Positions 5,396 to 13,171 of a DNA stretch of 64,000 bases are shown here, piece by piece; position 1 is the first letter of the stretch; each line of letters starts with the position of its first letter. The position numbers and the translations under genes are program-made. The DNA comes from Escherichia coli (GTDB lineage: Bacteria > Pseudomonadota > Gammaproteobacteria > Enterobacterales > Enterobacteriaceae), in NCBI RefSeq assembly GCF_045037415.1, contig NZ_CP173438.1; one strand, 5' to 3'. The notes beneath the pieces are model-generated. The model searched no databases. It was not told the origin of the DNA and saw nothing but the letters and a program-made list of their open reading frames with translations.

Positions 5396-6598
5396 ATGCA
5401 AAGTGTTGATGTAGCCATTGTTGGCGGCGGCATGGTCGGGCTGGCGGTTGCCTGCGGCTTACAGGGTATCGGCTTACGCGTTGCCGTACTGGAGCAGCGC
5501 GTACCGGAACCTCTGGCGGCGGATGCACCACCACAACTGCGCGTTTCGGCTATCAATGCCGCCAGCGAAAAATTACTCACCCGTCTTGGCGTCTGGCAGG
5601 ACATTCTCTCTCGTAGGGCCTGTTGCTATCACGGCATGGAAGTGTGGGACAAAGACAGCTTTGGTCACATCTCGTTTGACGATCAAAGCATGGGCTATAG
5701 CCATCTTGGGCATATCGTTGAAAACTCAGTGATTCACTACGCGCTGTGGAACAAAGCGCTGCAGTCGTCAGATATCACTCTGTTGGCCCCCGCAGAATTA
5801 CAGCAGGTCGCCTGGGGTGAAAATGAAACCTTCCTGACGTTGAAAGATGGCAGCATGTTAACGGCGCGTCTGGTGATTGGCGCGGACGGCGCTAATTCCT
5901 GGTTGCGCAACAAAGCCGATATTCCGCTGACTTTCTGGGATTATCAGCATCACGCGCTGGTGGCGACCATTCGCACGGAAGAACCGCATGATGCGGTGGC
6001 GCGACAGGTTTTTCATGGCGAAGGCATTCTGGCCTTTTTGCCGCTTAGCGATCCGCATCTTTGCTCGATTGTCTGGTCACTGTCGCCAGAGGAAGCGCAG
6101 CGGATGCAGCAGGCAGGCGAAGACGAATTTAATCGCGCGTTAAATATCGCTTTTGATAATCGCCTGGGCTTATGCAAGGTTGAAAGTGAGCGCCTGGTGT
6201 TCCCGCTAACGGGGCGTTATGCGCGCCAGTTTGCCGCGCACCGTCTGGCGCTGGTGGGCGACGCCGCGCATACCATTCACCCGTTGGCGGGGCAGGGGGT
6301 AAATCTCGGCTTTATGGATGCTGCAGAGCTGATTGCTGAACTGAAACGGTTGCATCGTCAGGGTAAAGACATCGGGCAGTACATTTACCTGCGTCGCTAT
6401 GAGCGTAGCCGCAAGCACAGCGCGGCGCTGATGCTGGCTGGTATGCAGGGATTCCGCGATCTGTTTTCCGGGGCTAATCCGGCGAAAAAATTGCTGCGTG
6501 ATATTGGTCTGAAACTGGCTGATACGCTTCCTGGCGTTAAGCCACAACTTATTCGCCAGGCAATGGGATTAAACGATTTGCCTGAATGGCTGCGTTAA
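5396..6598 (+). CDS. ubiI: 2-octaprenylphenol hydroxylase (FAD-dependent; VisC)
   Basis: 400 aa; VGGGMVGLAVA dinucleotide-binding motif; paralogue of ubiH immediately upstream. Confidence 0.92.
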   Translation: MQSVDVAIVGGGMVGLAVACGLQGIGLRVAVLEQRVPEPLAADAPPQLRVSAINAASEKLLTRLGVWQDILSRRACCYHGMEVWDKDSFGHISFDDQSMGYSHLGHIVENSVIHYALWNKALQSSDITLLAPAELQQVAWGENETFLTLKDGSMLTARLVIGADGANSWLRNKADIPLTFWDYQHHALVATIRTEEPHDAVARQVFHGEGILAFLPLSDPHLCSIVWSLSPEEAQRMQQAGEDEFNRALNIAFDNRLGLCKVESERLVFPLTGRYARQFAAHRLALVGDAAHTIHPLAGQGVNLGFMDAAELIAELKRLHRQGKDIGQYIYLRRYERSRKHSAALMLAGMQGFRDLFSGANPAKKLLRDIGLKLADTLPGVKPQLIRQAMGLNDLPEWLR

Positions 6599-7045
6599 AA
6601 ATTTCTCTTCTGCTGTTTATTTGATACCCATCACACTTTCATCTCCCGGTTTTTTCGCCGGGAGATTTTCCTCATTTGAAATAAACTAATTTCACCTGCG
6701 ATTTCGCATTATATTTTCTAATGCCACGAATTTTTGATTTAGTGTTTTTTGACATTTTTTTAGTTCTTAATGTTGTCTTATTCAAATTAACTTTCTCATC
6801 TATTTATCTTTATATAGAGATTTGTTCATTTTTTGGTTTTTTATTCTGTTACGATTTTGGCGTTTTTTAACCATAAGCTAATGTGATGATCAATTTTACC
6901 TTATGGTTAACAGTCTGTTTCGGTGGTAAGTTCAGGCAAAAGAGAACGATTGCGTTGGGGACCGGGAGTGGCTCCGATGCTGGGTTTCGTGGTGATAATT
7001 TCGCCATAGAAAAGTTGTCAGCCCCGCTTATTCAATGAGGACAAG

Positions 7046-8140
7046 ATGGCACAACAGACTCCTTTGTACGAACAACACACGCTTTGCGGCGCTCGCATGG
7101 TGGATTTCCACGGCTGGATGATGCCGCTGCATTACGGTTCGCAAATCGACGAACATCATGCGGTACGTACCGATGCCGGAATGTTTGATGTGTCACATAT
7201 GACCATCGTCGATCTTCGCGGCAGCCGCACCCGGGAGTTTCTACGTTATCTGCTGGCGAACGATGTGGCGAAGCTCACCAAAAGCGGCAAAGCCCTTTAC
7301 TCGGGGATGTTGAATGCCTCTGGCGGTGTGATAGATGATCTCATCGTCTACTACTTTACTGAAGATTTCTTCCGCCTCGTTGTTAACTCCGCCACCCGCG
7401 AAAAAGACCTCTCCTGGATTACCCAACACGCTGAACCTTTCGGCATCGAAATTACTGTTCGTGATGACCTTTCCATGATCGCCGTACAAGGGCCGAATGC
7501 GCAGGCAAAAGCTGCCACACTGTTTAATGACGCCCAGCGTCAGGCGGTGGAAGGGATGAAACCGTTCTTTGGCGTGCAGGCGGGCGATCTGTTTATTGCC
7601 ACCACCGGTTACACCGGTGAAGCGGGCTACGAAATTGCGCTGCCCAATGAAAAAGCGGCCGATTTCTGGCGCGCGCTGGTGGAAGCTGGCGTTAAGCCAT
7701 GTGGCCTGGGCGCGCGTGACACGCTGCGTCTGGAAGCGGGCATGAATTTGTATAGCCAGGAGATGGACGAAACTATTTCTCCTTTAGCCGCCAATATGGG
7801 CTGGACTATCGCCTGGGAACCGGCAGATCGTGACTTTATCGGTCGTGAAGCTCTGGAAGCGCAGCGTGAACATGGCACAGAAAAACTGGTTGGTCTGGTG
7901 ATGACCGAAAAAGGCGTGCTGCGTAATGAACTGCCGGTACGTTTTACTGATGCGCAGGGCAACCAGCATGAAGGCATTATCACCAGCGGTACTTTCTCCC
8001 CAACGCTGGGTTATAGCATTGCGCTGGCGCGCGTGCCGGAAGGTATTGGTGAAACGGCGATTGTGCAAATTCGCAACCGTGAAATGCCGGTTAAAGTGAC
8101 GAAACCTGTTTTTGTGCGTAACGGCAAAGCCGTCGCGTGA
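7046..8140 (+). CDS. gcvT: Glycine cleavage system T protein (aminomethyltransferase)
   Basis: 364-aa [44 protein letters not shown]...; first gene of gcvTHP. Confidence 0.95.
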
Positions 8141-8163
8141 TTTACTTTTTTGGAGATTGATTG

Positions 8164-8553
8164 ATGAGCAACGTACCAGCAGAACTGAAATACAGCAAAG
8201 AACACGAATGGTTGCGTAAAGAAGCCGACGGCACTTACACCGTTGGCATCACCGAACACGCTCAGGAGCTGTTAGGCGATATGGTGTTTGTTGACCTGCC
8301 GGAAGTGGGCGCAACGGTTAGCGCGGGCGATGACTGCGCGGTTGCCGAATCGGTAAAAGCGGCGTCAGATATTTATGCGCCAGTAAGCGGTGAAATCGTG
8401 GCGGTAAACGATGCACTGAGCGATTCTCCGGAACTGGTCAACAGCGAACCGTATGCAGGCGGCTGGATTTTCAAAATCAAAGCCAGCGATGAAAGCGAAC
8501 TGGAATCACTGCTGGATGCAACCGCATACGAAGCATTGTTAGAAGACGAGTAA
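8164..8553 (+). CDS. gcvH: Glycine cleavage system H protein (lipoyl carrier)
   Basis: Track ORF 8161..8553; start at the second Met gives 129 aa; lipoyl-lysine context [11 protein letters not shown]. Confidence 0.94.
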
Positions 8554-8671
8554 CGGCTTTATTCCTCTTCTGCGGGAGAGGATCAGGGTGAGGAACATTT
8601 ACGCCTCACCCTCACTCTCTTCGTAAGGAGAGAGGTTCACAATTCACTGCACGTTTCAGGAACCATCGCTC

Positions 8672-11545
8672 ATGACACAGACGTTAAGCCAGCTTGAAAA
8701 CAGCGGCGCTTTTATTGAACGCCATATCGGACCGGACGCCGCGCAACAGCAAGAAATGCTGAATGCCGTTGGCGCACAATCGTTAAACGCGCTGACCGGC
8801 CAGATTGTGCCGAAAGATATTCAGCTTGCGACTCCGCCGCAGGTTGGCGCACCGGCGACCGAATACGCCGCACTGGCAGAACTCAAGGCTATTGCCAGTC
8901 GCAATAAACGCTTCACGTCTTACATCGGCATGGGTTACACCGCCGTGCAGCTACCGCCGGTTATCCTGCGTAACATGCTGGAAAATCCGGGCTGGTATAC
9001 CGCGTATACTCCGTATCAACCTGAAGTCTCCCAGGGCCGCCTTGAAGCACTGCTCAACTTCCAGCAGGTAACGCTGGATTTAACCGGGCTGGATATGGCC
9101 TCTGCTTCTCTTCTTGACGAAGCCACCGCTGCCGCCGAAGCAATGGCGATGGCGAAACGCGTCAGCAAACTGAAAAATGCCAACCGCTTCTTTGTTGCTT
9201 CTGACGTTCATCCGCAAACGCTGGATGTGGTCCGTACTCGTGCCGAAACCTTTGGTTTTGAAGTGATTGTCGATGATGCGCAAAAAGTGCTCGACCATCA
9301 GGACGTCTTCGGCGCGCTGTTACAGCAGGTCGGCACTACTGGTGAAATTCACGACTACACTGCGCTTATTAGCGAACTGAAATCACGCAAAATTGTGGTC
9401 AGCGTTGCCGCCGATATTATGGCGCTGGTGCTGTTAACTGCGCCAGGTAAACAGGGCGCGGATATTGTTTTTGGTTCGGCGCAACGCTTTGGCGTACCGA
9501 TGGGCTACGGTGGCCCACACGCGGCATTCTTTGCGGCGAAAGACGAATACAAACGCTCAATGCCGGGCCGTATTATCGGTGTATCGAAAGATGCAGCTGG
9601 CAACACCGCTCTGCGCATGGCGATGCAGACTCGTGAGCAACATATTCGTCGTGAAAAAGCGAACTCCAACATTTGTACATCCCAGGTCTTGCTGGCAAAC
9701 ATTGCCAGTCTGTATGCCGTTTACCACGGTCCGGTTGGCCTGAAACGTATCGCTAACCGCATCCACCGTCTGACCGATATCCTGGCGGCGGGCCTGCAAC
9801 AAAAAGGTCTGAAGCTGCGCCATGCGCACTATTTCGATACTTTGTGTGTGGAAGTGGCCGACAAAGCGGGCGTGCTGGCGCGTGCCGAAGCGGCTGAAAT
9901 CAACCTGCGTAGCGATATTCTGAACGCGGTTGGGATCACCCTTGATGAAACCACTACGCGCGAAAACGTGATGCAGCTTTTCAGCGTGCTGTTGGGCGAT
10001 AACCACGGGCTGGACATCGACACACTGGACAAAGACGTGGCTCACGACAGTCGCTCTATTCAGGCTGCGATGCTGCGCGACGACGAAATCCTCACCCATC
10101 CGGTGTTTAATCGCTACCACAGCGAAACCGAAATGATGCGCTATATGCACTCGCTGGAGCGTAAAGATCTGGCGCTGAATCAGGCGATGATCCCGCTGGG
10201 TTCCTGCACCATGAAACTGAACGCCGCCGCCGAGATGATCCCGATCACCTGGCCGGAATTTGCCGAACTGCACCCGTTCTGCCCGCCGGAACAGGCTGAA
10301 GGTTATCAGCAGATGATCGCGCAGCTGGCTGAGTGGCTGGTGAAACTGACCGGTTACGACGCCGTTTGTATGCAGCCGAACTCTGGCGCACAGGGCGAAT
10401 ACGCGGGCCTGCTGGCGATTCGTCATTATCATGAAAGCCGCAACGAAGGGCATCGCGATATCTGCCTGATCCCGGCTTCTGCGCACGGCACTAACCCGGC
10501 TTCCGCGCATATGGCAGGAATGCAGGTGGTGGTTGTGGCGTGTGATAAAAACGGCAACATCGATCTGACTGATCTGCGCGCGAAAGCCGAACAGGCGGGC
10601 GATAACCTCTCCTGTATCATGGTGACCTATCCTTCCACCCACGGCGTGTATGAAGAAACGATCCGTGAAGTGTGTGAAGTCGTGCATCAGTTCGGCGGTC
10701 AGGTTTACCTTGATGGCGCGAACATGAACGCTCAGGTTGGCATCACCTCGCCGGGCTTTATTGGTGCGGACGTTTCCCACCTTAACCTGCATAAAACTTT
10801 CTGCATTCCGCATGGCGGTGGTGGTCCGGGTATGGGACCGATCGGTGTGAAAGCGCATCTGGCTCCGTTTGTACCGGGTCATAGCGTGGTGCAAATCGAA
10901 GGCATGTTAATCCGTCAGGGCGCGGTTTCTGCGGCACCGTTCGGTAGTGCCTCTATCCTGCCAATCAGCTGGATGTACATCCGCATGATGGGCGCAGAAG
11001 GGCTGAAAAAAGCAAGCCAGGTGGCAATTCTTAACGCCAACTATATTGCCAGCCGTCTGCAGGATGCCTTCCCGGTGCTGTATACCGGTCGCGACGGTCG
11101 CGTGGCGCACGAATGTATTCTCGATATTCGCCCGCTGAAAGAAGAAACCGGCATCAGCGAGCTGGATATTGCCAAGCGCCTGATCGACTACGGTTTCCAC
11201 GCGCCGACCATGTCGTTCCCGGTGGCGGGTACGCTGATGGTTGAACCGACTGAATCTGAAAGCAAAGTGGAACTGGATCGCTTTATCGATGCGATGCTGG
11301 CTATCCGCGCAGAAATTGACCAGGTGAAAGCCGGTGTCTGGCCGCTGGAAGATAACCCGCTGGTGAACGCGCCGCACATTCAGAGCGAACTGGTCGCCGA
11401 GTGGGCGCATCCGTACAGTCGTGAAGTTGCAGTATTCCCGGCAGGTGTGGCAGACAAATACTGGCCGACCGTGAAACGTCTGGATGATGTTTACGGCGAC
11501 CGTAACCTGTTCTGCTCCTGCGTACCGATTAGCGAATACCAGTAA
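8672..11545 (+). CDS. gcvP: Glycine dehydrogenase (decarboxylating), glycine cleavage P protein
   Basis: 957-aa [33 protein letters not shown]...; length and sequence match GcvP. Confidence 0.95.
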
Positions 11546-11567
11546 TTTACTGATTCGACTATCTTCT

Positions 11568-11590
11568 AAAGGCGCTTCGGCGCCTTTTTC
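11568..11590 (+). terminator. Rho-independent terminator of gcvTHP
   Basis: ggcgc-ttcg-gcgcc hairpin followed by ttttt about 22 nt after the gcvP stop; flanked by A-run, so possibly bidirectional. Confidence 0.7.
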
Positions 11591-11710
11591 GCTTGTTAAT
11601 AAAGTGCGCTTTGTGTGTTTCGGTTGAGGCGTAATATAAAATATTGCGAGCTCAATATATTAAAAGAGTGCCAGGCCTGATGAGCGGAGCACATCAGGCA
11701 CATCGGCTAA

Positions 11711-13171
<1,461 letters not shown>

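Follow-up and report, generated by a model that had tools for sequence, protein, structure and literature searches.

A probable decayed BoxC/TMECO pair in the gcvH-gcvP spacer of Escherichia coli, adjoining a mapped RNA 3' end

The window analyzed here, a 64,000-nucleotide stretch of Escherichia coli DNA, carries the gcvTHP operon, in which the entire spacer between gcvH and gcvP comprises 118 nt (8554-8671). The features of this region are listed in Table 1. A preliminary description of the spacer, made from the DNA sequence, had noted three stacked stem-loops without a U-tract, had held that they were not a terminator, and had suggested an RNA element within the operon, either a processing or stability determinant or an intergenic-repeat unit.

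Table 1. Features in and around the gcvH-gcvP spacer (window positions)
Feature	Position	Strand	Details
gcvT	7046-8140	+	
gcvH CDS	8164-8553	+	Stop TAA 8551-8553; named gcvH in E. coli RefSeq records
BoxC/TMECO-like unit 1	8563-8594	+	TCCTCTTC pyrimidine arm, loop TGCG, GGAGAGGA purine arm, linker, GGGTGAGGA third block
Hairpin H1	8563-8582 (8563-8570/8575-8582)	+	8 bp including one G-U, loop UGCG, -11.8 kcal/mol
Hairpin H2	8585-8612 (8585-8593/8604-8612)	+	9 bp, 10-nt loop, -15.1 kcal/mol
BoxC/TMECO-like unit 2, inverted	8603-8634/6	-	CCTCTCTCC ttac GAAGAGAG tga GGGTGAGG
Hairpin H3	8615-8634 (8615-8622/8627-8634)	+	8 bp including one G-U, loop GUAA, -10.6 kcal/mol
Mapped RNA 3' end	8616	+	4 nt 3' of H2 stem, 2 nt into H3 5' arm
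gcvP translation-initiation region	8641-8671	+	Shine-Dalgarno AGGA 8658-8661; outside the repeat
gcvP CDS	8672-11545	+	ATG at 8672

The minimum-free-energy fold of the sense RNA of the spacer contained exactly three stem-loops, H1, H2, and H3, the same three as in the preliminary description, and H2 was the most stable of them. The energy of this fold was -44.3 kcal/mol versus -29.9 +/- 3.4 kcal/mol for dinucleotide shuffles (z = -4.31), and none of the 200 shuffles reached it. The antisense RNA folded more weakly, at -36.9 kcal/mol (z = -2.15), with energies of -6.5, -14.3, and -5.8 kcal/mol for H1, H2, and H3, respectively. The element as a whole is palindromic, with arms at 8565-8593 and 8604-8632. 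The tail on the 3' side of the H2 stem, UCACUCUC, has only three U residues within 8 nt, so that the GC-rich hairpin followed by a U-tract that makes an intrinsic terminator is not present in the spacer, and no terminator-like site (hairpin plus T-run) was found on the + strand in 8300-8900. The z score, the shuffles, and this negative search together indicate that the structure is real, above chance, and without a U-tract, which bears out both the stem-loops and the statement that they are not a terminator. A consensus scan of 8300-8900 gave no sigma-70-like promoter, and an internal gcvP promoter in the spacer was rejected on that basis. An Rfam scan of 6500-12000 at a permissive E value returned sub-threshold noise only, the top match being whalefall-1 (score, 19.8 bits; gathering threshold, 37 bits; E = 0.14). 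Beyond the hairpins, 8641-8671 is near-invariant in Enterobacteriaceae spacers regardless of the repeat that lies upstream. This block of ~30 nt before the gcvP start, attcactgcacgtttcaggaaccatcgctc, is conserved beyond the needs of a Shine-Dalgarno sequence alone and, judged by its conservation, may serve in translational control or as a binding site.

The spacer was then compared with the enterobacterial intergenic repeat families. The REP consensus palindrome (GCCGGATG...CATCCGGC type) was not present in the E. coli spacer, and the same search flagged REP in Citrobacter and Lelliottia. The central inverted repeat of the ERIC/IRU element, GTGAATCCCCAGGAGCTTACAT / AAGTAAGTGACTGGGGTGAGCG, was likewise not found in the E. 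coli spacer and was present at the same locus in other genomes (L006, L008, L017, and others of our set of loci); we take these two strings to be the ERIC primer sequences and the whole element to be of ~127 bp. The family that the spacer does resemble is BoxC, described by Bachellier and colleagues in the 1990s, also known as PIT elements (Hoyne and Maher 2000) and TMECOs (Holder et al. 2015, PMC4666352). The published TMECO motif is 5'-CCCTCNCCC N3-6 GGGNGAGGG N3 GGGNGAGGG, and E. coli K-12 has 23 TMECOs in 18 loci, five of which are inverted pairs; neither promoter nor terminator activity has been reported for the family (PMC4666352).

In the gcv spacer, unit 1 matched the strict TMECO motif at 19 of 24 positions (5 mismatches, with a 2-nt loop in that register) and unit 2 at 18 of 24 (6 mismatches). 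Neither unit satisfies the motif strictly, and the gcv element is absent from the list of 23 K-12 TMECOs; we therefore file it as a diverged derivative and not as a canonical member. The two units were the two best matches to the motif on either strand of the 64-kb window, the next best having 7-8 mismatches. They were also the top two matches in the window to an nhmmer profile of the 23 K-12 TMECOs, with E values over the whole window of 0.012 for unit 1 and 6.9 for unit 2, each weak individually though suggestive jointly, and they lie 11 nt apart in the inverted arrangement typical of TMECO pairs. In the register used, 8 of the 11 mismatches to the consensus are C-to-T or G-to-A transitions. 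The intergenic site and the inverted pairing that characterize BoxC/TMECO elements are both found here, and the layout is shared in detail: each unit consists of CT-rich and GA-rich arms around a short loop, then a 3-nt linker and a GGGTGAGG block, and the facing third blocks form a central hairpin. TMECO10/11, the canonical pair that K-12 carries ~70 bp past gcvP, reads hairpin, GGGTGAGGGG, loop, CCCTCACCCC, hairpin, and the gcv element reads hairpin, GGGTGAGG, loop, CCTCACCC, hairpin, H2 being built from the facing GGGTGAGG and CCTCACCC blocks, one from each unit. The gcv copy differs from the family in its linkers (TCA/TCA instead of TTA or CCG), in its failure to satisfy the strict motif, in being single-copy by BLAST, in its reduced triplex potential, and in the unusual stability of its locus in the population. 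By inspection, unit 1 could still form 7 of 9 base triplets of a purine-motif intrastrand triplex; its DNA hairpin contains a G-T mismatch.

A BLAST search of 5,426 complete E. coli genomes placed the spacer, at 95% identity or more, in 5425 of them, with a median of one place per genome. Because the gcv copy has diverged, such a search cannot recover the rest of the BoxC family; a canonical-looking BoxC-like query was found in a median of 19 places per genome among 5,425 E. coli genomes, and real copies were read in two loci. On the evidence of motif, profile, layout, and orthologous copies (below), the gcv element is by descent most likely a BoxC/TMECO pair, and of the two natures that the preliminary description had allowed for, that of an intergenic-repeat unit is borne out, the family being BoxC/PIT/TMECO and not REP or ERIC. 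We found no literature that links gcvH or gcvP with BoxC.

The sequence on the far side of gcvP differs between the strains. In K-12, the TMECO10/11 pair (~7063-7170 of the K-12 stretch, L083) and ygfF lie between gcvP and bglA (L083 6993-8058). Neither is present in the window (11546-11710), in which the gcvP terminator directly adjoins the end of bglA. This indel polymorphism beside a BoxC pair agrees with reports that such loci are unstable. The gcvP terminator is a canonical intrinsic one (aaaggcgc ttcg gcgccttttt, 11568-11589) and corresponds to the RNA end at K-12 3,046,123, and a REP-like palindrome (gcctgatg...catcaggc, 11675-11699) lies just downstream of the convergent bglA.

To place the element in a wider context, 80 gcvH loci from named genomes (~275 kb) were compared. 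The gcvH-gcvP spacer ranged from 8 to 445 nt, and its content changed by lineage. The TMECO profile matched strongly (E values of 9e-9 to 2e-4) in the spacers of L010, L012, L018, L023, L026, L029, and L048 and more weakly in those of L004, L021, and L022; across the 80 loci, every match fell within the spacer. The matches started ~7-11 nt past the gcvH stop codon in nine loci and 20 nt past it in Buttiauxella (L029). Full or partial BoxC triple hairpins were seen in a divergent Escherichia (L004), Enterobacter cloacae and E. asburiae (L010, L026), Pseudocitrobacter (L018), Pluralibacter (L048), Buttiauxella, the Enterobacteriaceae isolate RIT691 (L023), and a metagenome-assembled genome (L012). 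Canonical BoxC copies are thus found in loci orthologous to the gcv spacer, although they may reflect independent insertion at a hot spot. In Siccibacter (L034), the three-hairpin layout was recognized by eye and had no profile match. A single CCCTCTCCC hairpin was present in Cedecea (L021), Phytobacter (L022), and two Enterobacter isolates (L024, L039), the last two being without a TMECO-profile match.

Other lineages carry other elements at this position. REP/BIME sequences were found in the spacers of several Citrobacter, Lelliottia, Pseudescherichia, some Enterobacter, and others, and ERIC in those of other Citrobacter and Kluyvera. The short spacers of Erwinia (23 nt) and Rosenbergiella (8 nt) have no hairpin, indicating that the slot is dispensable. 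A GC-rich hairpin followed by a T-run occupies the same position in genera such as Photorhabdus, Providencia, Serratia, Dickeya, Pantoea, Shewanella, and Idiomarina. Such a structure lies directly after gcvH, ~5-45 nt past its stop codon, in many Gammaproteobacteria outside the Enterobacteriaceae (L044, L045, L050, L053-L057, L062, L063, L066, L073, L079, and L082), and gcvP in these genera may depend on read-through or on a promoter of its own. The intrinsic terminators or attenuators of these other Gammaproteobacteria share with E. coli a GC-rich hairpin that starts 5-27 nt past the gcvH stop codon and differ from it in carrying the T-run that the E. coli element does not have. Among the 75 gammaproteobacterial spacers of 40 nt or more, whichever element they contained, 73% folded with z < -2 (median, -2.7). 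Some long gcvH-gcvP spacers contain tandem ERIC-like palindromic repeats, as in a Providencia metagenome-assembled genome (L078 1894-2338; 445 nt) and in Serratia marcescens (L074 1891-2209; 319 nt).

We then turned to published maps of RNA ends. The Term-seq data of Adams et al. (2021, supplementary file 1) include a curated "orphan" 3' end at MG1655 3,049,097 on the - strand, with the surrounding sequence ...GCCTCACCCTCAC[T]CTCTTCGTAA. Such strings run from -50 to +10, as verified on the SgrS and gcvP terminators, and the window coordinate is obtained as 3,057,713 minus the K-12 coordinate, a conversion cross-checked with the coordinates of the CLASH fragment described below; the end therefore falls directly past H2. 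It is listed three times, one per growth-condition sheet, with average reads of 412,219 (LB OD 0.4 sheet) and 171,112 (another sheet) (Adams et al. 2021). The "primary" end at the gcvP terminator, K-12 3,046,123, had 36,065 reads (Adams et al. 2021), and the end at 8616 thus had ~11-fold more, a count comparable to those of abundant sRNAs such as ssrS. The same listing gives no Rho termination region near 8616. Similar curated ends accompany other BoxC copies of K-12, lying 3-5 nt past the hairpin at 847200, 3781065 (TMECO17), 3959467 (TMECO20), and 4231270 and about 10 nt past it at 632098 (Adams et al. 2021).

A fragment of matching extent appears in Hfq-CLASH data. Iosub et al. (2020, PMC7213987) report gcvH "3UTR" fragments joined in chimeras to OmrB, RyeA, dsbB, livJ, and lpxH; these fragments, K-12 3,049,091-3,049,154, coincide exactly with the H1-H2 region. 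[quoted passage not shown] The gcvH fragment thus shares with this group its TEX sensitivity, its processed nature, and its presence in Hfq chimeras, and differs in that it is putative and unnamed, has no terminator U-tail, and shows no evident conserved seed. A RIL-seq-based predictor gave gcvP.gcvH.IGT an sRNA probability of 0.003-0.004. The 3' end 4 nt past H2 in three sheets and the processed 3'UTR RNA in the Hfq-CLASH data agree with the other half of the earlier suggestion, that of a processing or stability determinant.

From these results we propose, as the probable account, that a decayed inverted BoxC pair has become fixed in E. coli and that H1 and H2 act as an exonuclease barrier, so that RNA is trimmed to 8616. 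Each BoxC unit would contribute one CT/GA hairpin (H1 and H3, respectively), the facing GGGTGAGG and CCTCACCC blocks would provide H2, and the element would be transcribed within the gcvTHP mRNA, where H1 and H2 would block 3'-to-5' exonucleases. If the distal gcvP part were cleaved, or transcription ended early, trimming from the 3' side would proceed through H3 and halt 4 nt past H2, leaving an abundant RNA ending with gcvT-gcvH. Further cuts on the 5' side would leave a short processed H1-H2 remnant that could be cross-linked to Hfq. RNase E prefers sites of the type GCUUU, cleaved after GC. A presumed cut at such an RNase E-like site, at 8557/8558, would give a remnant of ~59 nt.

Known systems offer close parallels. 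The gcv element would probably work like the REP-type intercistronic stabilizers and the stem-loops of Dar and Sorek. The REP/BIME stabilizers (e.g., malE-malF) are likewise dispersed palindromic repeats without a U-tract inside an operon, and REP occupies the equivalent gcvH-gcvP position in Citrobacter, Lelliottia, some Enterobacter, and others. Newbury, Higgins and colleagues reportedly found in 1987 that REP blocks 3'-to-5' exonucleases and raises the level of the upstream segment, as in malE-malF. The gcv element is unrelated in sequence to REP/BIME, the GCCGGATG and CTTATCCGGC motifs being absent, and its own stabilizing effect is putative. As described by Dar and Sorek (2018, PMC6061677) for protective stem-loops, steady-state 3' ends occur directly 3' of stable stem-loops without a U-tract, which protect against PNPase and RNase II. 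The gcv end shares with these a precise position a few nucleotides past such a stem-loop; relative to the Rho-dependent or processed ends described there, it differs in lying inside an operon with no Rho region listed nearby (PMC6061677).

We infer that the end at 8616 arises by exonucleolytic trimming rather than by termination or a direct cut and that the element would raise gcvTH relative to gcvP. That the element tunes gcvP expression relative to gcvTH, as had been suggested, is plausible. H-protein is a shuttling co-substrate and is needed in excess where this has been measured, which makes an effect on the GcvH:GcvP ratio plausible. Several observations weigh against this mechanism. H3 is close to H1 in stability, yet trimming would have to pass through it. 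Earlier reporter work, as cited in PMC4666352, is reported to have found gene expression unaffected by PIT/TMECO elements. The hairpin-less spacers of Erwinia and Rosenbergiella and the weak covariation (below) also count against it. In addition, the high Term-seq count may come mostly from the short remnant and not from intact gcvTH mRNA, and the element might then leave GcvH:GcvP output unaffected.

Variation within E. coli bears on whether the structure is under constraint. Among five alleles (the window, K-12, O157:H7, O145, and a bat isolate), four sites varied, three of them within the loop of H2 and the fourth within that of H3, and stems and flanks were invariant. The G-U pair in each of H1 and H3 results from a sense-strand C-to-T change, making these hairpins ~5 kcal/mol stabler in the mRNA than in the antisense RNA. 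Such sense-specific pairing hints at selection on the transcript rather than the DNA, a thin hint because H1 and H3 share the variant. Across the 11 BoxC-bearing spacers, pairing was kept in 86% of cells versus 57-72% with slid partners; double-sided changes were seen in six pairs, a result that 74 of 500 shuffles equalled. This covariation is unconvincing, since the CT/GA arms are of low complexity and the MAFFT register is imperfect. In a rare allele, that of E. coli VTB96775v (L086 1-155), rearrangement has produced a longer palindrome that holds H2 twice and a copy of H3 in inverted orientation; the fetched stretch has no gcvH annotated beside it.

We put forward only tentatively a broader reading, in which a hairpin at the position just past gcvH is itself selected, BoxC/TMECO elements would be RNA-level exonuclease barriers wherever they are transcribed, and the gcv copy would have been domesticated, setting the GcvH:GcvP ratio and releasing an Hfq-bound RNA. 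As part of this same tentative reading, lineages would fill the position variously, with terminators in distant genera and with BoxC, REP, or ERIC in the Enterobacteriaceae.

Set against selection of any kind, the pair might be a neutral relic of a palindromic repeat, selfish or passively spreading, in a permissive spacer, its 3' end and fragment being incidental decay intermediates. No function has been found for the BoxC family (PMC4666352), the succession of BoxC, REP, and ERIC by genus is what would be expected of a permissive insertion site, some genera are entirely without a hairpin, the covariation is weak, and the predictor score for the intergenic transcript is very low. We nevertheless regard a neutral relic as unlikely. 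The stems are invariant, with all four variable sites of the five alleles in loops; the element is retained at 95% identity or better by 5425 of 5426 genomes, though TMECO loci are reported to be unstable (PMC4666352); the transitions that depart from the consensus preserve pairing in the sense RNA only; and a stable hairpin just past gcvH is near-universal, including the hairpin plus T-run of distant genera.

It is improbable that the element is instead a noncanonical partial terminator or attenuator, at which polymerase would stop past H2 without a U-tract and send fewer transcripts into gcvP. The position of the 3' end, 4 nt past a GC-rich 9-bp stem, would fit such a stop, and the hairpin with a T-run at the same position in Photorhabdus, Providencia, Serratia, Dickeya, Pantoea, Shewanella, and others would give it a precedent; against it stand the three U residues within 8 nt past the stem and the absence of a terminator-like match in the spacer.

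We consider still less probable a trans-acting role, in which the RNA of ~60 nt spanning H1-H2, released by RNase and bound by Hfq, would act as a 3'UTR-derived sRNA or sponge by pairing with other RNAs. The Hfq-CLASH chimeras, the listing among putative 3'UTR-derived sRNAs (PMC7213987), and a Term-seq count in the range of ssrS speak for this role. The RNA, however, has no U-rich 3' tail for the proximal face of Hfq, was not found in RIL-seq or TIER-seq (PMC7213987 table), scored very low in the predictor, and is mostly locked in stems; the H2 loop, its only long unpaired segment, varies among E. coli strains.

A DNA-level element, in which an intrastrand triplex or cruciform at the BoxC pair would affect replication, recombination, or supercoiling, ranks lowest of the alternatives and is very improbable: the family forms triplexes in vitro and is linked to local genomic variability (PMC4666352), VTB96775v has a rearranged, partly duplicated palindrome, and the window strain lacks the canonical BoxC pair and ygfF that K-12 carries downstream of gcvP, but at the gcv copy consensus positions are lost in all three blocks, G-T mismatches are present in the DNA hairpins, by inspection only 7 of 9 triplets could form, 5425 of 5426 genomes carry a near-identical locus, and in vivo footprinting gave no support for stable triplexes even at canonical TMECO copies (PMC4666352).

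The decayed BoxC pair acting on the transcript is thus most likely an ordinary RNA-end or stability element rather than a new kind of regulator. The repeat family, the type of mechanism, and the raw data points were already public. What is new is that the orphan Term-seq peak and the unnamed CLASH fragment both coincide with a decayed BoxC pair and that the position past gcvH is filled by interchangeable hairpin elements across Gammaproteobacteria. If the proposal is true, BoxC/PIT/TMECO, an orphan family for 30 years, would gain an effect at the RNA level in the form of defined, abundant 3' ends; earlier work on BoxC dealt mainly with triplex formation by the DNA and saw no part for the repeats in expression. 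The proposal would also account for an "orphan" Term-seq peak in K-12 that had gone unremarked and for an Hfq-CLASH fragment without a name, and gcvTHP would offer a compact natural case of ratios within an operon kept by interchangeable hairpin modules, GcvH being a carrier protein expected to be needed in excess over the large P-protein. The view of such elements would be unchanged, with REP-type logic extended to another repeat family and another operon.

Two further observations were made in the course of this work. At K-12 2,945,855 (- strand; Adams et al. 2021), the mapped end belongs to a terminator with the stem GGGTGAGGG/CCTCGCCC followed by TTTTT, which, from its sequence, looks like a BoxC central hairpin with an acquired U-tract. 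The other concerns the start of the operon, where yqfI, annotated as a small protein gene of 27 codons, is found upstream of gcvT, antisense in the spacer between ubiI and gcvT (K-12 L083 2119-2202). We know of no glycine riboswitch at the start of the E. coli gcvT operon. In the Term-seq data, 3' ends of 80,000-106,000 reads map near window positions 6990 and 7111 (K-12 3,050,723 and 3,050,602; Adams et al. 2021), the former (~6990) in the gcvT 5' UTR and the latter 65 nt into gcvT, which suggests premature termination or processing at the operon start.
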